Shown here in pieces: positions 27,401 to 52,750 of a stretch of DNA of 53,872 nucleotides (within the stretch, counting starts at the first letter, position 1; every line of letters begins with the position of its first letter). The notes under the pieces are model-generated. The model was given only the letters and a program-made list of their open reading frames with translations. It made no database searches and was not told the DNA's origin. The translations under genes were made by a program, and so were the position numbers. The DNA is from Patescibacteria group bacterium (GTDB taxonomy: Bacteria; Patescibacteriota; Minisyncoccia; Phycocordibacterales; JACZSL01): NCBI GenBank assembly GCA_022574205.1, contig JACZSL010000003.1, positions 1 through 53,872 of the forward strand, written 5' to 3'.

Positions 27401-28633
27401 CTATATGCCCAATTTACGCTTATAAAAAAGGATATCAAGAGCAAGAAATGGGTCAAGTGCCCATTCTCCCCCCAGCCATGTAATGTAGTTAGCAAGATAT
27501 GTACCATCGAGAACTGTTACTTCAAAATGTTGCATATCTGGCATAGTCTCTTGTTCTGATTGTGGTTCGATAATTTTTTTAAACCAACCGGAAAGGTCTT
27601 TATCTGCCAATAGTAAAAGCGTGTTAGGAAGGGGTCGTGTTTGGCGAATTTTATTCAGTGCTAAAGAGAAGGAACTAGTCCACTGTGCTCTAACGGATTC
27701 CATAATAGCAATAAAATCGCTTTCCTGTTTTTGGCTCATTTTCCCGCATAAATATAAATGCAGTAGTGAACGGGTTTCTTCGATAGGTACTTTAAGAACT
27801 TTAGAAATCTCACGGAAAACTAAATGTCGCCCTCCTGTAAACGAGGCCAAATGAACTAGCGTGCCACCATCAACAAGACTTATGTCACTCATCTCGGCAC
27901 TAATGTCCAAGAGTACAAAATCGTCGCTTTGCTCAAAAACATCCCTAGCCGCAAGAAATGATGCAAGTGGAAACGCATGAAAATCCACACTATCGTCAGG
28001 AAGTAATTCTCCTACAATTTCAGATGTTTGGTCGTGAATGTCACGTGAGATGGCGCTAAGTCCTAGATCAATTTTCAGCCTCTTTGTTGGTTTGTCGTAA
28101 GGGTTGCTCGTTTGGTAACCATTTAATGTTGTTCGAATTATCTCACAATCCACTGAAGCCAAGTCTCGATTCCTCGATTTAATAGGGGTGGTTTTGGTAT
28201 CTTCCCCAATAAATTTGGAAATCGCCTCTTTCACAAATCTTTCGGATATTTGCCTCGTCATAGTAAACGGTTCCTCCTTATTTATAGACAACCTTCTTAT
28301 CTCAACTGTAGCCCACGGACTTGAGAATGTGGTTAATACGTGATCTACGAGTTTACCCTTCAGGAAAATGCCTTCATTTTTCAATAGCTGTGTGGTAACA
28401 GATTGCACTTCGAACATAGTGTTCAGTAGTGTTGCAAGCATGGCTTTTGTTAACTTATCTAAACGTGGGGCTGTTTCATGGAAACTAATCGCGTTCCTCG
28501 TGCTGTAAAGAATCTTTGGAAGCTTTTTTGGCGAAAGTATGGCAAGAGCCGCTCCAACACTCCCGCTTCCAATGTCAAAAACAATGAGAGAACGTGTACC
28601 TGTATTCGTCTTTGAAGAAGCTTTGTTTTTCAT
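27401..28633 (-). CDS. Actin-like (FtsA/PilM-like) protein
   Basis: VFDIGSGSV and LLDISAEMSDI phosphate-loop-like motifs, GGRHL; start reassigned to MKNKA. Confidence 0.55.
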   Translation of the reverse strand: MKNKASSKTNTGTRSLIVFDIGSGSVGAALAILSPKKLPKILYSTRNAISFHETAPRLDKLTKAMLATLLNTMFEVQSVTTQLLKNEGIFLKGKLVDHVLTTFSSPWATVEIRRLSINKEEPFTMTRQISERFVKEAISKFIGEDTKTTPIKSRNRDLASVDCEIIRTTLNGYQTSNPYDKPTKRLKIDLGLSAISRDIHDQTSEIVGELLPDDSVDFHAFPLASFLAARDVFEQSDDFVLLDISAEMSDISLVDGGTLVHLASFTGGRHLVFREISKVLKVPIEETRSLLHLYLCGKMSQKQESDFIAIMESVRAQWTSSFSLALNKIRQTRPLPNTLLLLADKDLSGWFKKIIEPQSEQETMPDMQHFEVTVLDGTYLANYITWLGGEWALDPFLALDILFYKRKLGI

Positions 28634-28835
28634 CCCGTTAGAGATAGGAAACGCCAAATAACGAAGTTAAAATAGTGCTTCCTATTTTATTATTTTCTAA
28701 AAATCTTTTCATCGACCTAGGTGTTGTGCCTATTCCGGCGTTTCCGTAAGTTATTTTTTATCTTTATATACATTTACTTATTTTACTATTTTGTTAGTAA
28801 AGGTCATACATAACTATTAACTATCTCTAACGGGA
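28633..28835 (-). mobile_element. 203-bp start-codon hairpin element (twin 1)
   Basis: Perfect 15-bp TIR tcccgttagagatag; TGAA duplication; near-identical to 34198-34403. Confidence 0.9.
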
Positions 28836-33340: not shown

Positions 33341-34198
33341 CTATTCTATACGATGATCGCCGGTACACAAGGCTTGACTTTCTGCAATAACCGTGGCTAT
33401 TTTCGCAGGCGCAACACCAGCTTTTTGTAGCGCGGCGGCGTCTTCGCCCAAGTCACGGCATAGCACAATTTTCTGTTCAAGGAGATTCTTCTTTTCCCTA
33501 TCTGACAGCGTTGAAAGACACGTTATAGGATAGATGCGAGTCTGTGTAATGAGGTCGTATAGGCCACGCTTGTTGGGATAGAACCAACTTAGAAGTTTTA
33601 AATCAACGCACTTAGCATACGAAATGGAACTTTTTGTAAATTTAGTATTGGTTATCAACCAAGCTTCACGGACCATGTCCCCTTCTTCCAAGTTTTCTTG
33701 TTTGTGAATATCGAGAAAACGAGCATGCACATAGAGCGCAACTTTTAAGTCCGTTTTAATACCTAGATTGTTGTGAAATTTAATCTCGGCGGAAATTCTT
33801 GTATTGTCCTTCTCCGCAACAAGATCTACTTCGTGGGTTGCACACTTTCCCTGAATCACTTGTTGGATACGCGTGCTATAACCTAATGCGTTAAAAACTT
33901 CTGCAACGTAATTTTCAAACGGGAATCCACTTGGACCAAGAGCGAAAACTCCGCGACGAATTGAGTACCGTGCAGCGACAGTTTTCTCCTTACTTTTTCT
34001 CAGTAGCGAAAAAGCATGTCTGTAGATCTCGCTCGTAGTCATGCCATCCTCAATTTCAGCATTAACGTGATTAACAATTTCCTTGATCAATTTTTGAGAT
34101 GTACCGGTTTTTTTGAGGGACCGCTCAAGTTTACTCTGTAAGAATAATTCTTTCTCGCCATTGGCTTTTATGACATAAATTTCTCGATATTCCTTCAT
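33341..34198 (-). CDS. ATP-cone + Mrr-like restriction endonuclease domain protein
   Basis: VIKANGEKELFLQSKLERSL (ATP-cone), GFPFENYVAE, HEVDLVA...AEIKF; start reassigned to MKEYR. Confidence 0.8.
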   Translation of the reverse strand: MKEYREIYVIKANGEKELFLQSKLERSLKKTGTSQKLIKEIVNHVNAEIEDGMTTSEIYRHAFSLLRKSKEKTVAARYSIRRGVFALGPSGFPFENYVAEVFNALGYSTRIQQVIQGKCATHEVDLVAEKDNTRISAEIKFHNNLGIKTDLKVALYVHARFLDIHKQENLEEGDMVREAWLITNTKFTKSSISYAKCVDLKLLSWFYPNKRGLYDLITQTRIYPITCLSTLSDREKKNLLEQKIVLCRDLGEDAAALQKAGVAPAKIATVIAESQALCTGDHRIE

Positions 34199-34403
34199 CC
34201 CGTTAGAGATAGGAAACGCCAAATAACGAAGTTGAAATGGTGCTTCCTGGTTTATTATTTTCTAAAAATCTTGTCATCGACCTAAAAATGCTGTGCTTAT
34301 TCTGGCGTTTCCGTAGGTTATTTTTTATCTTTGTATACATTTACCCATTCTACTTATTTTGCTCGTTGAGGTCATACATAACTATTAACTATCTCTAACG
34401 GGA
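34198..34403 (-). mobile_element. 206-bp start-codon hairpin element (twin 2)
   Basis: Same TIR and TGAA duplication as 28633-28835; first 38 and last 40 nt (flanks included) identical. Confidence 0.9.
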
Positions 34404-39071: not shown

Positions 39072-41909
39072 TCAAATGACTATGTTTATAAGCTTTTTTG
39101 GAACATAGATTAATCTTTTTGGTTTCTTGCTATTAGTCCACTTCAAAATATTTGGAATGAGGAGCGCCTTCTCGAGCGCCTGCTCCTTGGTCAACCCACC
39201 CTCACCCTCAAACTCTCCCCTAAGTTTTCCATTAACCTGAACAGCCACAGTGTATGTATTCTCATTTATTTTACTCGCGTCATAACTGGGCCACGGTGCT
39301 TTATGAATCGACTCTCCTTCTCCGATATTTTCCCAGAGTTCTTCTGTAATGTGGGGGGCAAACGGAGCGAGTAATTGAAGAAATGTTCTGTATGCGCCCC
39401 TCGACACGCGCCCCTCTTTTTCGATTTCATTTATAAAGATCATAAGAGAAGAAACTGCGGTATTGAATTTCATCGCTTCAACATCTTCGCTAACTTTTTT
39501 TATAGTCTTATGTAATAGAGCGTCTATGGACTCCACGTCTCTCTTGTCGTCGACAATATCCATTACCCTCCACACTCGATCGAGAAACCTTCGTGAGCCA
39601 ACCATGTTGTCAGTGCTCCAGCTGATCGCCTGCTCAAATGGTCCCATAAACATTTCGTAGACACGTAGTGTGTCTGCACCGACGTTGTCTATGACTTCGT
39701 CTGGATTTACTACATTCCCCTTTGATTTGCTCATTTTTCCCCCTCCTTCGGCGAGAATTAGTCCATGTGATGTTCGTTTTTTGTATGGCTCGCTGGAGGA
39801 TACCAACTTCTGATCATATAAAAACTTGTGCCAAAAGCGGGAATAAAGCAGGTGGAGTGTTGTGTGCTCCATCCCGCCGTTGTACCAATCAACCGGCATC
39901 CATTCTTTTAGCAACTTCTTATTTGCAAACTCCTTAGCGTTTGTTGGATCAGCATATCGAAGGAAGTACCAACTCGAGCCGGCCCAGTTTGGCATGGTGT
40001 CTGTCTCGCGACGAGCGCGCCCTCCACACTTCGGACATTTAACATTAACGAAGTCCGAAATGTTTGCTAAGGGTGACTCGCCGCTGTCAGTCGGCTCGTA
40101 TTTTTCAACTTCTGGAAGTTCGACTGGAAGTTGGTCTTCCGGCACAGGTACCCAACCGTCGACTTTGCAGTGGATCATTGGTATCGGCTCACCCCAATAC
40201 CTCTGGCGCGAGAAGACCCAATCACGAAGTTTGTAGGTTGTAACCATCTTCCCGCCAACCTTTTTTATGATCTTTTCCTTAGCCCCCTCTGACTCCATTC
40301 CATCAAATTTGCCAGAGTTCATTAAAAAACCAGTCCCGATTAGCGCTTCCTCATTTTGCAAAATGTGCCAAACTTGCCTCTGGTGATATGGGGTTAGTCT
40401 GTTCAAAATCTCTTTTTTATCTACCCACGTTAGTGTATGAAGAGACTGTTCATGCTCGTTAATCTTACCTTGGGAGATTAGATCGTCGACTTCTGCCATA
40501 AATGCGTGGACAATAGCACAGCGATTCTGTTTTTTGTGGGATGCACAATATTTGGCGGCTGTAATCCAACGTGATCTGCTAACAATTTTGGCATTTGGAA
40601 TAGCTGCCTCCTCCTCTATTTCGGTAAGTGCAGCTTCTTCGGGTGTTTGTCTTTTTTCAATTCCTCCCATAATTGCGGTGGTAATACCTTCTAATGATCC
40701 GTGCCAGTCAAGTAATGCAAATTTACCAGTTGATTTATTACGCAAGTGCACAATAATCATGTCGCGTGACACCTCGTCAAATCTTTCCTGAGGTGGATTT
40801 GTGACATCCTCTGCACATGTAACTAAAACTTGGCGTATTTCAAGATTGTACTTTTTTGCAAAAGCAAAGTCGCGCTCATCGTGAGCGGGGACGGCCATAA
40901 TCGCTCCCGTTCCATAGTGGGCCATTACATAGTCCGCAATGTAAATAGGAATCTCTTCATTGTTTGCCGGATTAATAGCTTTCACTCCCTTAAGTTCCAC
41001 CCCCGTCTTTCCTTTAGTGTCGTCAGTCCTTTCGATCTCACTCCTCTTCGCCGATACTTCGATATATCGCAGTACTTCGTCGAGGTTTGTAATTGAGTCT
41101 TTAAGTTCTTTAACTAAGGAGTGCTCCGGTGCAAGAACCATGTAGGTTGCTCCAAACAAAGTGTCGGGACGAGTTGTGAATGTTTTAATTTCTTTGTCAC
41201 TACCCTTTATTTTAAAAGTTATCTCCGCCCCCTCACTTTTACCAATCCAGTTGCGCTGTCCTACTTTTATAGCTTCTGTATAGTCGAGCTCCTCCAGATC
41301 ATCATGGAGGCGGTCAGCGTACTTTGTGATCGAAAGCATCCACTGTTCCTTTTCTCGCATATCTATCTCGCCACCACAGCGCTCGCATTTACCGTCAATA
41401 ACCTCTTCATTTGCTAGGCCAATCTTACACGTTAAGCACCAGTTTATAGACATCTTAGCCTTATATGCCAAACCTTTTTTATAGAGCTGTAAAAAAATCC
41501 ACTGTGTCCATTTGTAATAAGTTGGATCAGTGGTATTAATCTCGCGCGACCAATCAAAAGAGATGCCGATAGATTTTATCTGCGCCCTGAATTTGTCTGT
41601 ATTGTTTTTTGTTACATCCTTCGGATGCGTGCCGGTTTTTATCGCATAGTTTTCTGTTGGCAGTCCAAAAGCATCCCACCCAATCGGGAATAGTACATTT
41701 TTACCCTCTGCGCGTCGTTTGCGCGCAACGATATCCATCGCCGTATATGGCCTGGCGTGACCGACGTGTAAACCGTCACCAGAAGGATACGGAAATTCTA
41801 CAAGAATATATTCTTTGTCGCTCTTTTTGTCGTCCGCTTTATATAACTCTTTCTTTTCCCAAACATCCTGCCACTTTCTTTCTATGCGCTTGTGGTCATA
41901 CTTTTTCAT
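39072..41909 (-). CDS. leuS: Leucine--tRNA ligase with an inserted Nudix-like domain
   Basis: HVGH, editing-domain TTRPDT and GTGAIMAVPAHD, KMSKS; ATG overlaps the upstream TGA. Confidence 0.97.
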   Translation of the reverse strand: MKKYDHKRIERKWQDVWEKKELYKADDKKSDKEYILVEFPYPSGDGLHVGHARPYTAMDIVARKRRAEGKNVLFPIGWDAFGLPTENYAIKTGTHPKDVTKNNTDKFRAQIKSIGISFDWSREINTTDPTYYKWTQWIFLQLYKKGLAYKAKMSINWCLTCKIGLANEEVIDGKCERCGGEIDMREKEQWMLSITKYADRLHDDLEELDYTEAIKVGQRNWIGKSEGAEITFKIKGSDKEIKTFTTRPDTLFGATYMVLAPEHSLVKELKDSITNLDEVLRYIEVSAKRSEIERTDDTKGKTGVELKGVKAINPANNEEIPIYIADYVMAHYGTGAIMAVPAHDERDFAFAKKYNLEIRQVLVTCAEDVTNPPQERFDEVSRDMIIVHLRNKSTGKFALLDWHGSLEGITTAIMGGIEKRQTPEEAALTEIEEEAAIPNAKIVSRSRWITAAKYCASHKKQNRCAIVHAFMAEVDDLISQGKINEHEQSLHTLTWVDKKEILNRLTPYHQRQVWHILQNEEALIGTGFLMNSGKFDGMESEGAKEKIIKKVGGKMVTTYKLRDWVFSRQRYWGEPIPMIHCKVDGWVPVPEDQLPVELPEVEKYEPTDSGESPLANISDFVNVKCPKCGGRARRETDTMPNWAGSSWYFLRYADPTNAKEFANKKLLKEWMPVDWYNGGMEHTTLHLLYSRFWHKFLYDQKLVSSSEPYKKRTSHGLILAEGGGKMSKSKGNVVNPDEVIDNVGADTLRVYEMFMGPFEQAISWSTDNMVGSRRFLDRVWRVMDIVDDKRDVESIDALLHKTIKKVSEDVEAMKFNTAVSSLMIFINEIEKEGRVSRGAYRTFLQLLAPFAPHITEELWENIGEGESIHKAPWPSYDASKINENTYTVAVQVNGKLRGEFEGEGGLTKEQALEKALLIPNILKWTNSKKPKRLIYVPKKLINIVI
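40350..40820 (-). other. Nudix-like domain inserted in LeuRS (boundaries approximate)
   Basis: GGIEKRQTPEEAALTEIEEEAAI aligns to GX5EX7REUXEEXGU. Confidence 0.75.
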
Positions 41910-42853
41910 CACCTGATTCGACTTGGTATCTCTTTACGTGGTGGAAATCGATCAGGGTCAATAGTTCTTTCAAAACATGTTTCACCTTCGGAGTGCGCCC
42001 AGCTGGTCCCTTCCGTACTGAACTGTGGATATCGTAAGCTTTCACTCTTACCACTACTTTCAAGATTAAACTCTGCGCATAGTGCAAACGATCGCGCGCC
42101 AGTGACACGATAAGTGTAAGCCTCTCTGGTCTCAGGGTCATTTGGCGCAACGTATCCGGTAATGGAATCTTCAAGGTCGGTTAAAGTTTTTGGTAAGACT
42201 TCTTTGCTTTGCCAGTGATCCACAATCTGCCATTGTATGTTTTGAAGGTCAGACACTCTTTCTCTATCGATTCGAAGCTCGCGTTGGCTCGCTGGGGAGC
42301 CTGTGATGAAGAAGCCGCCCACTATAGAAATAAATACCACTAGAGCAACGGCAATACTCACGCTACGTGCAGCTTTTGGGTTACCGGCCCAGCGACCCTT
42401 AAGGTCATAAAAGTAATAACTAAAACCTCCCCCTATAACAACAAAGATTGAGAGTACTTTAAGAATAAATCGTGTCGTTAAATCTCCACCAAGAAATGTA
42501 TTAACGAGCACTATAAGGTCTATTGCAACGGTTGCCCCTCCAATAAAAAGTGTCAAATATATAAGCCATCGTCTTATGCCAAGATCGCTTTTGCGCGAAT
42601 CTCTCCTTATCTCCCTGTTTACATAGCGTGATAGATAAATGAAGAGTGGAAAAACTATGATGAGAGCCGCCATCGATGAGCGGATAGCACCAGAAAAGGG
42701 ATCAACGAAACTATTTAAAGTGCTTGGAAATAGAAGGTTGATATATTGAAACCACAGCACAAGGAGACTAACTGCACTTATGTACAGCGTTATCATTACA
42801 CCCACATAAAGGAAGAAGTCCTTTGGGGTCATTTTCACTTTTGTTTCTACCAT
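41909..42853 (-). CDS. Multi-TM protein (DUF5671-like) with a pilin-like C-terminal domain
   Basis: PKDFFLY...WLIYLTLF TM block; DRERVSDLQNI...LP...DPET...YTY...LCAEF tail. Confidence 0.7.
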   Translation of the reverse strand: MVETKVKMTPKDFFLYVGVMITLYISAVSLLVLWFQYINLLFPSTLNSFVDPFSGAIRSSMAALIIVFPLFIYLSRYVNREIRRDSRKSDLGIRRWLIYLTLFIGGATVAIDLIVLVNTFLGGDLTTRFILKVLSIFVVIGGGFSYYFYDLKGRWAGNPKAARSVSIAVALVVFISIVGGFFITGSPASQRELRIDRERVSDLQNIQWQIVDHWQSKEVLPKTLTDLEDSITGYVAPNDPETREAYTYRVTGARSFALCAEFNLESSGKSESLRYPQFSTEGTSWAHSEGETCFERTIDPDRFPPRKEIPSRIR

Positions 42854-49509: not shown

Positions 49510-49548
49510 TAAAAAAACCACAGTGGGGAGAAAGCTCTCCACTGCGGT
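49510..49548 (-). terminator. Intrinsic terminator of the 91-aa gene
   Basis: Minus strand accgcagtggagag-cttt-ctccccactgtggt then TTTTTT. Confidence 0.8.
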
Positions 49549-49577
49549 AACTGTTTGATCGTGTCGCTCATTTGGTC

Positions 49578-49853
49578 TTAGTCTGGGCGGTTGTGGTCCT
49601 GCAACTCTGCTATTGTGTAGACCCCTTCAGCCCAGAGGCAGCCCTGTATAAAACCAAGCCACCTGAAAGTTTTCTCTACCCTTCCTTCTTGGATGAAATC
49701 CAGCATTTTGTCGAGCATGCCGTGGCAATGACCAAGCGTGTCTTGGGGTGAATAAACTATTTGCTCATGGTGATATTCTATTTCCTCTATATCATGCTCT
49801 ACAAAGTAAGCTCGATATAGGCTAATGTCCTCTCGTACCTTATCGGGTGTCAT
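49578..49853 (-). CDS. 91-aa hypothetical protein (RWLGFIQG family)
   Basis: SD-like GGAG/AGGTG upstream, own terminator; LGHCHGM...EKTFRWLGFIQGCL motif. Confidence 0.75.
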   Translation of the reverse strand: MTPDKVREDISLYRAYFVEHDIEEIEYHHEQIVYSPQDTLGHCHGMLDKMLDFIQEGRVEKTFRWLGFIQGCLWAEGVYTIAELQDHNRPD

Positions 49854-49950
49854 TTCACCTACTCCTGTGTAGCGATTTCTGGCTCTAATTTATAGGTTTA
49901 TGCGAGAAAAGTAAAGGGTTGCCGCGATAAGTCAGCGATGTACAATAATA

Positions 49951-50031
49951 GGTGAACCATCACGTAGAATGGTGGTTCATAGAACCACATTCACTGGGGG
50001 TATTTCTCTGTATTTCCCCAGGATTTTTTAT
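49951..50031 (+). ncRNA. Candidate small RNA, unit 1
   Basis: TACAAT (49941-49946), GTGAACC..GGTTCA stem, CACATTC linker, GC stem + U-tract. Confidence 0.6.
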
Positions 50032-50083
50032 TTGAAAAAGATAGGTTGTCGCACAGATAGAATTAATGGTGTACAATAAGTAA

Positions 50084-50160
50084 GTGAACCTTCCCCAAAT
50101 TAGGTTCAAGTGCACCAGCACACATTCCCGGGGTTGCGTAAGCTCCCCGGGTTTTTTTTA
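50084..50160 (+). ncRNA. Candidate small RNA, unit 2
   Basis: TACAAT (50072-50077), GTGAACC..GGTTCA stem, CACATTC linker, cccgggg/ccccggg stem + T8. Confidence 0.6.
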
Positions 50161-50192
50161 TTTTGATGATCTCCCGTAGTCTCCCTCGTATT

Positions 50193-50243
50193 TATCCCGT
50201 ATGAAATAGGACGTAAACGTCCGTAATTTCGTTCGGGGCTCAT
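50193..50243 (-). mobile_element. Short decayed relative of the uvrB-type hairpin element
   Basis: tcccgtatgaaatagg..atttcgttcgggg resembles tcccgtacgaaatagg..atttcgtacggga; flanks ATGAG / ATAAA. Confidence 0.5.
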
Positions 50244-50279
50244 ACTCTATACTTATACTTTAGGTGCTACAATACACTC

Positions 50280-51323
50280 ATGCGGTTTACTACAATACAG
50301 CAATCAGTATTTTTTGGTTTACTTATTATAGTCACTGTAGGATTTTTATTTCTGATTCGTGATTTCCTTATGCCTGTATTTTGGGCGATAGTTTTTGCGA
50401 TTATCTTCTACCCACTCTATAGCTGGTGGCTTAGCGCCACTCGCGACCGTGCCTCGCTTTCTTCCTTTTTGACGATTATAACTATAACTTTGCTCATATT
50501 TACGCCTCTTTTCTTTCTAGGAAGCATGGTAGTAAAGGAATCTGTAGACTATTATCAGCAGTTTGCGGCGGGAGGAACTGTCAATGTCCTAGCCAAAGCT
50601 ACTGTAGCTACGGACTACCTCCAACAACTAGGTATTGAGCGCGAGCAGATTCAAGACGGCGTGGCAAGTGCCGCAAAAGCCGCAAGTAGCTGGCTTGCCA
50701 CGCAAGCTATAAGCTTCGGACAGAACACATTCAAGATAACGCTATCGTTCTTCTTCATGTTGTATCTATTGTTCTTCACACTGCGTGACGGAATTAAACT
50801 TAAGAAACGGCTTATCGAAATTTTGCCACTTGGCTACAGTAAAGAGAAAAGATTATTTAGAAAATTTGCATCCACAACTCGCGCGACCATAAAAGGCACG
50901 TTCCTCATCGCACTTATTCAGGGAGCGCTCGGTGGTATATTGTTCTTTGCAGTAGGAATAAGCGCGCCGTTTTTGTGGGGTTCCATCATGGGAGTGCTAT
51001 CTGTGATCCCCGCTATAGGTCCAGGCATTATCTGGCTTCCTGCCGGAATAATACTTCTCGTAAGTGGAAGTATTTGGCAGGGAATCTTTGTGCTTGTCGC
51101 CGGCGGACTTGTGATAAGTCTTATAGACAATGCACTTAGACCTATCTTTGTAGGAAAAGATACGGAGATGCCAGACTTTCTAATACTGCTTTCAACTTTT
51201 GGTGGACTATCTGTCTTTGGTATCACAGGTTTTATAATAGGCCCGATCATTGCCGCATTCTTCTTATCCATGTGGAACATGTTCGAAGAAGAATACAAAA
51301 AAGACCTCAAACTCAGAGGCTAA
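50280..51323 (+). CDS. AI-2E family transporter
   Basis: Multi-TM; DNALRPIFVG, GFIIGPII; leaderless TGC-TACAAT-6nt-ATG. Confidence 0.9.
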   Translation: MRFTTIQQSVFFGLLIIVTVGFLFLIRDFLMPVFWAIVFAIIFYPLYSWWLSATRDRASLSSFLTIITITLLIFTPLFFLGSMVVKESVDYYQQFAAGGTVNVLAKATVATDYLQQLGIEREQIQDGVASAAKAASSWLATQAISFGQNTFKITLSFFFMLYLLFFTLRDGIKLKKRLIEILPLGYSKEKRLFRKFASTTRATIKGTFLIALIQGALGGILFFAVGISAPFLWGSIMGVLSVIPAIGPGIIWLPAGIILLVSGSIWQGIFVLVAGGLVISLIDNALRPIFVGKDTEMPDFLILLSTFGGLSVFGITGFIIGPIIAAFFLSMWNMFEEEYKKDLKLRG

Positions 51324-51346: not shown

Positions 51347-51814
51347 TTAGAGCTCGAGCTCCTCGATGTCGTGAAGAACTTCTTTTGCGTGCTCCGCTGG
51401 TTTTACCTTACGGTAGATTTTGGCTATGTTCCCTTTTGGATCGATAAGAAATGAATCGCGAAGTGTTCCCATATATTTTTTGCCCATAAAGTTTTTCTTT
51501 CCCCAGACCCCATATTTTTCTACCACTTCTTTACTCTCGTCGGATAGAATATTAAATGGGAATTTAAATTTCTCCGAGAACTTTTTATGGCTTTCGATTG
51601 AGTCAATGCTTACTCCAAATATAACAGCGTTAAGCTTTTCAAAATCAGAAAATGCGTCGCGCAGAGTCTCACCCTCTGTGGTACACCCTGGCGTATCGTC
51701 CTTTGGATAAAAATACAAGAGCACCCACTTGCCCAAGTAGTCATTGAGTGCGTGCGTCTTGCCGTCTTGATCAGGAAGACTAAATTCTGGAGCTTTATCC
51801 CCTACTTTAATCAT
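51347..51814 (-). CDS. bcp: Peroxiredoxin BCP (1-Cys type)
   Basis: [14 protein letters not shown]. Confidence 0.93.
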
Positions 51815-51821
51815 AGGGGAA

Positions 51822-52750
<929 letters not shown>

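Follow-up and report, generated by a model that had tools for sequence, protein, structure and literature searches.

Putative sibling genes for small non-coding RNAs in tandem in a Patescibacteria group bacterium from marine sediment

The window, by which we mean the whole stretch of DNA analysed here (53,872 nt of contig JACZSL010000003.1), carries two short and similarly built units in tandem on its plus strand. Upstream of them lie genes for HlyD- and AcrB-type efflux proteins and a divergent gene for a 91-aa protein; downstream follow an AI-2E-family transporter gene, AhpC and ATP-synthase genes. The remainder of the window is housekeeping in content, with LeuRS, AlaRS, UvrA, UvrB, DnaK and a sigma factor. 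Named relatives of the AcrB, AI-2E and 91-aa proteins come from Saccharibacteria, Minisyncoccia, Kaiserbacteria, Pacebacteria, Taylorbacteria and entries labelled 'Patescibacteria group', which bears out the assignment to the CPR. The features of the locus are as follows.

49578..49853, minus strand: divergent 91-aa ORF, with no demonstrated link to the RNAs
49917-50031, plus strand: unit 1, comprising promoter-like region, hairpin, linker and terminator
49917..49946, plus strand: promoter-like region of unit 1, called by a sigma-70 scan
49917-49925, plus strand: GGTTGCCGC of unit 1, including the -35-like TTGCCG at 49919-49924
49939-49946, plus strand: TGTACAAT of unit 1, including the -10 element TACAAT at 49941-49946, with a 16-nt spacer to the -35-like element
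49951..50029, plus strand: predicted transcript of unit 1, ~79 nt, placed from the promoter and terminator positions
49952-49979, plus strand: GTGAACC...GGTTCA of unit 1
49953..49979, plus strand: hairpin of unit 1, a 10-bp stem (49953-49962 with 49970-49979) and the loop CGUAGAA
49980..49993, plus strand: linker of unit 1, with CACATTC at 49987-49993 and including GAACCAC
49994..50029, plus strand: intrinsic terminator of unit 1, CUGGGGG/UCCCCAG (49994-50000 with 50015-50021), U6 at 50024-50029
50044-50160, plus strand: unit 2, with the same order of elements as unit 1 plus a mini-hairpin
50044..50077, plus strand: promoter-like region of unit 2, GGTTGTCGC at 50044-50052, a 20-nt spacer and TGTACAAT at 50070-50077 (TACAAT at 50072-50077)
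50083..50159, plus strand: predicted transcript of unit 2, ~76 nt, placed from promoter and terminator
50084-50108, plus strand: GTGAACC...GGTTCA of unit 2
50085..50108, plus strand: hairpin 1 of unit 2, a 7-bp stem (50085-50091 with 50102-50108) and the C-rich loop UCCCCAAAUU
50110-50121, plus strand: mini-hairpin (hairpin 2) of unit 2, GUGC-ACCA-GCAC; the region with the linker spans 50110..50126
50121-50127, plus strand: CACATTC of unit 2, including the single-stranded ACAUU linker
50127..50159, plus strand: intrinsic terminator of unit 2, CCCGGGG/CCCCGGG (50127-50133 with 50145-50151), U8 at 50152-50159
50265..50282, plus strand: promoter of the AI-2E gene, TGCTACAAT, 6 nt, ATG
50280-51323, plus strand: AI-2E-family transporter gene in a leaderless arrangement

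Both units share GGTTGYCGC, TGTACAAT, a hairpin at the predicted +1, a linker, a G+C-rich terminator and a U-tract, and they repeat with a period of ~131 nt. All of the sequence features that an initial annotation had listed for the two units were found where it had placed them. The transcription start of unit 1 was placed 5-7 nt past the -10 element and its 3' end within the U-tract. The terminators are unidirectional, with U-tracts confined to their downstream side on the plus strand, and an intrinsic terminator is present in both units (U6 and U8) and in all of the orthologues described below.

These elements are in excess of chance. Where 0.05 occurrences of GTGAACC-N5-25-GGTTCA would be expected in the window there are two, and the promoter motif GGTTGYYGC...TGTAYAAT is found there only at the two units, which align with 77% column identity and fold more stably than their shuffled counterparts (z -3.2 for unit 1 and -4.6 for unit 2, the latter more exactly -4.55). 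A mixed MAFFT alignment of both unit types was dropped for model building, as it misaligned the 3' arm of the unit-2 type, and the covariance model (R1) was trained on unit-1-type sequences alone. This model recovered unit 1 at 49947-50033 with 96.7 bits and its orthologues with 80-101 bits, and it also detected unit 2 (50079-50163, 23.7 bits, E 9e-4) and the other unit-2-type copies (23-30 bits, E 1e-3 to 1e-5), upholding the earlier claim that the two units are homologous. Further copies below E 0.01 were found neither in the 53.9-kb window nor in 125 kb of relatives' loci.

No known RNA family accounts for the units. A scan of the whole window against Rfam 15 at gathering thresholds, which the initial annotation had proposed as a check, returned only a tRNA, and a permissive scan of 49800-50350 (E up to 10) gave matches at chance level and no riboswitch model, the best being LhrC (RF00616; 17 bits against a gathering threshold of 110, E 7.3) and OmrA-B (RF00079; 16.5 bits against 40, E 1.9). 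Comparison by blastn with phage and plasmid collections gave no match to the units, and specific patterns for the promoter plus 5' part and for the unit 1 hairpin had 0 matches in metagenome, genome and viral contig collections. A relaxed unit 1 hairpin pattern had 58 matches in genome contigs, mostly from Clostridia and none titled Patescibacteria, which were taken as unrelated by taxon and not one by one; the pattern GTGAACC..GGTTCA..CACATTC was too loose, with >119 unrelated genome-contig matches, for example in a coding region of L017. Searching GTDB genomes for synteny of AI-2E and AcrB retrieved only relatives at 30-55%, none of which carried the units. In the collections searched, homologues of the units were found nowhere beyond a narrow clade of marine-sediment Patescibacteria.

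Within that clade, an exact-protein look-up identified the near-identical strains L132, L133 and L140. Variant loci were L153 and L154 (91-aa protein 85% identical), L141 (68%) and, by the AI-2E protein, L214 (80% identical) and L216 (95%). Orthologous units were present in the contigs of L140, L141, L153, L154, L214 and L216, all from marine-sediment Patescibacteria, and the runs that contain the sequence are likewise marine-sediment metagenomes. Every unit-1-type locus keeps the promoter elements, hairpin and terminator, with the exception of L216, whose unit-1-like copy is represented by its 3' end alone. Across these orthologues, related CPR strains keep the units, and the substitutions preserve structure on the plus strand. 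Over six sequences, 59 of the 60 pair cells of the 10-bp unit 1 stem are paired (98.3%), against 18-55% with slid partners; one pair changes from A:U to G:C in two sequences, a compensatory change, and five others vary on one side only, all of them staying standard (G:U wobble or U:A). G:U pairs occupy 13 cells, which would be A.C mismatches if read on the opposite strand, and the structure of unit 1 is therefore that of a plus-strand RNA. With only six close sequences, 106 of 500 shuffled controls reached the observed covariation score, and we regard covariation in unit 1 as apparently supportive, not decisive. RNAalifold recovered the hairpin plus terminator from the unit-1-type set, and all variants fold in that form (z -2.9 to -6.6).

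Sequence conservation is unevenly distributed along unit 1. Its promoter is conserved in five strains and is 83-93% identical in L141, L153 and L154, about as much as the neighbouring CDS; promoter and hairpin together are 76-94% identical to other strains and the neighbouring CDS 81-89%, compared with 31-62% for the linker, the fastest-evolving segment. The loop context CACGUARRAUG is conserved across strains, and the terminators of the unit 1 orthologues have different G+C-rich stems of different lengths, each followed by U5-6. A linker carrying CACATTC had been described as conserved; it is present in both units of the window, and across strains it is kept only in unit-2-type copies. Two mutually exclusive folds had also been proposed for unit 1 on the strength of the gtggttc/gaaccac pairing. 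The alternative (linker GAACCAC with 49971-49978) is the MFE fold in the window strain, but GAACCAC is absent from L141, L153, L154 and L214, in all of which the upstream hairpin is the MFE element, so that the proposed pair of folds is not supported by the comparison.

Units of the second type evolve by replacement. Copies were compared from the window, L216, L153 and the X17 contig, which extends L154. They have in common the promoter and the stem base GARC/GUUC, to which GCACACAUUCC and the terminator can be added wherever the sequence reaches that far; the window, L216 and the X17 contig do not differ in GCACACAUUCC, and the unit 2 terminator is retained in L140 and L216 with minor changes. 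No sequence relationship links the distal stems and loops of the different strains, yet they still pair: the window has the loop UCCCCAAAUU, L216 has CCCUUCG-UCCUC-CGAAUGGG, the X17 contig has CCUC-CACUCCCCCGU-GAGG, and the loop of L153 is U/G-rich. Strains that differ by such a replacement of the body still have AI-2E genes with 93-95% identity. In hairpin 2 of L216, the kept GUGC/GCAC base is topped by an insertion, which folds into a 7-bp helix of its own. Variable loops, as claimed for the pair, are thus strongly in evidence for unit 2, whose hairpin body is wholly different between close strains, but not for unit 1, whose loop is conserved; a C-rich loop, similarly, is a property of unit 2 and of three of the four type-2 variants (UCCCC, UCCUC and CACUCCCCC), but not of type 1. 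The comparison suggests two subtypes, a type 1 with a constant hairpin and the conserved loop CACGUARRAUG, and a type 2 with an exchangeable distal stem and loop that is usually C-rich.

The composition of the array also differs between strains. Across the samples of the source study itself, the two-unit form is stable. In L214, unit 1 stands immediately before the AI-2E promoter; loose ends in X6 and X7 carry an additional unit promoter past unit 2, and an X25 contig has a divergent body between inter-unit junctions on both sides. In L215 (AI-2E 61% identical), 26 nt separate AcrB from the following AI-2E gene, and this direct adjacency identifies the 91-aa gene and the units as a lineage-specific insertion. 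In L141, unit 1 is succeeded by another kind of segment, C/U-rich and provided with a terminator. In place of unit 2 (reverse strand, ~800-1020), this strain has a TATAAT box, the C/U-rich stretch UUUUCCACCUAUUCUCCCUUAUACUUCUUCUC and, ahead of the T-tract AGATTTTT, the terminator GCCAAGGAC-C-GTCCTTGGC; the module may be a third, unrelated type of sRNA. Positions 170-215 of L214 keep only the promoter-like part of this L141-type module.

Several observations concern the flanking genes. The 91-aa protein has 42 homologues, those named being from Patescibacteria MAGs, and it matches phrog_7775, a phage family of unknown function (E 1e-11), with no match in Pfam. Its AlphaFold model (pLDDT 93.6) is a helical bundle of four helices with no significant or informative neighbour in the PDB, and its invariant residues include an RWLGFxQG motif. 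A TACAAT or TATAAT box lies exactly 6 nt before the ATG of both AI-2E (50268-50282, plus strand) and AhpC (51814-51826, minus strand), whose mRNAs are probably leaderless. The spacer that runs from the unit 2 terminator to the AI-2E promoter (50161-50240) is 86% identical in L141, against 72-81% for the flanking CDSs, and is wholly absent from L216 and X17-type strains; it contains the perfect 6-2-6 palindrome GGACGTAAACGTCC (50209-50222), a possible operator for the AI-2E transporter gene. The ATP synthase beta ORF (51917-52747, minus strand) encodes 276 aa, comprising the N-terminal barrel and, of the 213 positions of the nucleotide-binding domain, only 1-127. AhpC follows ~100 nt past this ORF, atpC is missing and atpD looks truncated; the corresponding ORF in L132 has 182 aa and different genes downstream, which suggests that the atp operon is decaying or rearranged, or that two pieces were joined in assembly.

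Elsewhere in the window, the LeuRS ORF (39072-41912, minus strand; 946 aa) has a NUDIX match at residues 413-507 (E 6e-6), just past the editing-domain match at 220-369, which would be an unusual insertion if real. The ORFs at 27401-28657 and 33341-34222, both on the minus strand, have almost identical upstream and start regions (ggaagcacYatttYaacttcgttatTTGGCG) and may share a duplicated 5' module; one of them has ATP-cone, Mrr-type restriction endonuclease and AF1548-like domains and the other is without a Pfam match. A replication origin at the strand switch at 44.3-44.6 kb was considered and rejected, with no DnaA-box cluster there.

A promoter scan called unit 1 (TTGCCG-16-TACAAT, 9/12), and left unit 2 uncalled because the spacer between its -35-like and -10 elements is 20 nt. 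In L153, L154, L216 and the X17 contig the unit 2 spacer is 16 nt, 4 nt fewer than in the window. Metatranscriptome runs, labelled as RNA, yielded Logan contigs over 49538-49990, over 50114-50311 (these two at a depth of 3-6) and over an extra unit. The contigs are unstranded, have a depth of 3-9 overall, about that of the neighbouring genes, and continue across promoters and terminators into the flanks; the libraries were size-fractionated or WGA, and carried-over DNA or read-through would account for the pattern no less well than sRNAs would. The contig at 49538-49990, from RNA-labelled runs X13 and X25, is identical to the window over 49860-49990 and has 38 mismatches, all upstream of 49860, those listed lying at 49569-49698 in the 3' part of the 91-aa CDS; it is a recombination mosaic with a breakpoint inside the 91-aa gene.

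The sequences show the anatomy of the units, their homology, structure-preserving change on the plus strand, the absence of coding conservation and the variation in copy number and body, and transcription, the RNA ends, an action in trans and any target are inferred. Each unit would be transcribed from its own sigma-70-type promoter (GGTTGYCGC / TGTACAAT), the RNA starting at the foot of the 5' hairpin, running through the linker (and, in unit 2, the mini-hairpin) and stopping at the intrinsic terminator, to give products of ~75-80 nt stabilised by the 5' hairpin and the terminator. The likeliest mode of action for such RNAs would be regulation in trans by base pairing with mRNAs, contact being made through the exposed hairpin loop, in a loop-first 'kissing' interaction, and/or through the conserved single-stranded ACAUUCC. 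On the sequence evidence, we consider it probable that the units are independent non-coding RNA genes; base pairing in trans is a tentative proposal that falls somewhat short of likely, and in the combined reading of tandem sibling sRNA genes that are independent and act in trans we place modest confidence.

Candidate targets were sought in the window. Complements of the loops occur across its 53.9 kb at chance frequency only, and duplex energies against its 47 start regions gave no robust outlier, the best duplex (YchF, -19 kcal/mol) sitting upstream of the likely true start. An SD-like motif, even loosely defined, precedes only ~11 of the 47 gene starts, and several genes look leaderless; general masking of SD sequences is therefore unlikely, with individual G-rich sites possible. 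The proposal that the C-rich loops target SD regions as a general mechanism is accordingly weak, with no target above chance, and the idea that CAU serves as an anti-AUG is not supported, as CACAUUC is not conserved in unit-1-type copies and has no start-codon match in the window.

In kind, the units have several counterparts among characterised sRNAs. LhrC1-5 of Listeria, RsaE and the Rsa family of Staphylococcus and the csRNAs of Streptococcus are multicopy, partly tandem RNAs with C-rich loops (UCCC/CCUCC). Like them, the present units are sibling copies with C-rich motifs in the type-2 hairpin loops, followed by a terminator; unlike them, the type-1 loop is not C-rich, the type-2 loop of L153 is U/G-rich, and the rarity of SD motifs in the window makes generic SD masking less plausible here. 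The LhrC score given above is at chance level. OmrA and OmrB pair with their targets through a seed in their conserved single-stranded 5' end, whereas the 5' end of the present units is a hairpin with the variable part as its loop, the host is a CPR bacterium, and the OmrA-B score reported above argues for no homology in sequence or structure. The resemblance lies in near-identical 5' and 3' parts, a divergent middle and a varying copy number, the units here being predicted RNAs. In Enterobacteriaceae, the omrA and omrB genes are adjacent, same-strand genes of ~80 nt, each with its own promoter and terminator and in lineage-dependent copy number, and there is established precedent, in OmrA/OmrB and the csRNAs for instance, for tandem siblings that share their ends and diverge in the centre (PMC4211561). 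With the antisense and kissing-loop regulators CopA, RNAI and Sok, known from plasmids and toxin-antitoxin systems, the units share a short stable stem-loop in which the loop would set specificity, and their loop and distal stem are replaced between relatives with the scaffold kept, but no complementary target in cis or nearby, no toxin-like ORF and no replicon context was found. The units thus resemble siblings of the OmrA/OmrB and LhrC/Rsa/csRNA kind and are members of none of those families.

Among the rival readings, the foremost, though unlikely, is that the RNAs are transcribed and act through a protein, as sponges, decoys or RNP components, with the type-1 loop CACGUARRAUG as the recognition site and the type-2 hairpins as specificity modules. 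A loop whose sequence is kept as its stem drifts is what a recognition loop would be expected to show, the window yielded no mRNA target, and in the closest strains a conserved 91-aa protein is divergently encoded beside the units. Against this reading, the model of the 91-aa protein is a plain helical bundle without a match to RNA-binding folds, the upstream regions of its more distant homologues lack such units, and unit 1 of L214 has a different upstream context; nor do the units contain the repeated GGA-type or other multi-site motifs typical of sponges. Next in rank, and with rather less probability, the units could be promoter-terminator modules that insulate or tune the 91-aa and AI-2E genes in cis, by interference, roadblock or a stop for read-through from the AcrB side, with the RNAs as by-products. 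They do sit between genes that directly adjoin one another in L215, unit 1 still neighbours the AI-2E promoter in L214, and the contigs from RNA-labelled runs continue over the unit borders into the flanks. Insulation would need terminators alone, leaving the conserved promoter, the conserved loop and the pair-preserved 5' hairpin unexplained, and past the two terminators the AI-2E gene is served by a separate promoter. Given that promoter, the units do not form a 5' leader to the transporter gene, and a riboswitch or leader was rejected with two full terminators and TGCTACAAT-N6-ATG intervening. A CRISPR or TIGR guide array was likewise rejected: every unit comes with a promoter-like region and a terminator of its own, TRF detected no array, and the neighbouring and large genes of the window (RND efflux, AI-2E, AhpC, ATP synthase, LeuRS, UvrA/B, DnaK) include no Cas or Tas effector.

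Ranked third, and held by us to be similarly improbable, is evolutionary debris, a duplicated promoter-terminator segment with no function, conserved by strain relatedness only. The restriction of all orthologues to one narrow clade, covariation within the shuffle control, the off spacing of the unit 2 promoter in the window and the differing presence and number of units between strains would all fit such an origin. Counter to it is L141, where the neighbouring protein is 68% identical and the unit 1 promoter and hairpin are kept at 76-83% against 46% for the linker; stem substitutions are almost all pair-preserving, and replaced type-2 bodies always re-form hairpins with the terminators kept. 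Least probable by far are leaderless mRNAs for small proteins, with GTG frames of 27 aa (49952-50035) and 31 aa (50084-50179). The GTG stands 5-6 nt past TACAAT, a spacing like that of the leaderless AI-2E gene, the 50084-50179 frame is in the ORF list, and GTG is replaced by ATG in L216. Against this, codon 7 is a TGA in L154, and indels in the linker put orthologues in different frames; CAGCACACATTCCC, which the window and L216 have both conserved, falls in a different frame in each, and the peptides predicted for the two bear no relation to each other. The frames also extend through the terminator hairpins, and changes in the stem are paired, not synonymous. We rejected small proteins on the L154 stop, the frame shifts and the unrelated peptides. 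The description of the units as non-coding, with promoter-like and terminator elements, is supported; the GTG reading frames are not conserved among the orthologues.

A more speculative extension, in which we place little confidence, is that type-2 units are exchangeable 'specificity cassettes', in which a fixed scaffold of promoter, stem base, GCACACAUUCC and terminator would carry a hairpin with its distal stem and loop swapped by recombination between strains and array positions, as a guide-like or kissing-loop system directed against mobile elements, transcripts of the episymbiont's host or competing strains. If this were true, each strain would carry a different loop-encoded recognition set, a system not described so far in CPR bacteria.

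Returning to the reading that we favour, the locus looks like a small set of tandemly arranged sibling genes for short non-coding RNAs, carried by a CPR bacterium of marine sediment and forming a putative new family restricted to its clade. A literature search for sRNAs in Patescibacteria and Saccharibacteria gave nothing relevant. Members of this lineage have tiny genomes with few regulators, and the window is rich in genes that lack SD motifs or have leaderless starts. Should the RNAs not be expressed, the locus would be merely a strain-specific duplication. The presence of a constant sibling beside a hypervariable one provides a natural experiment, in which it can be asked whether loop variants track target variants, and the conserved promoter-hairpin-terminator pair is a concrete and testable candidate for RNA-based regulation in this lineage.
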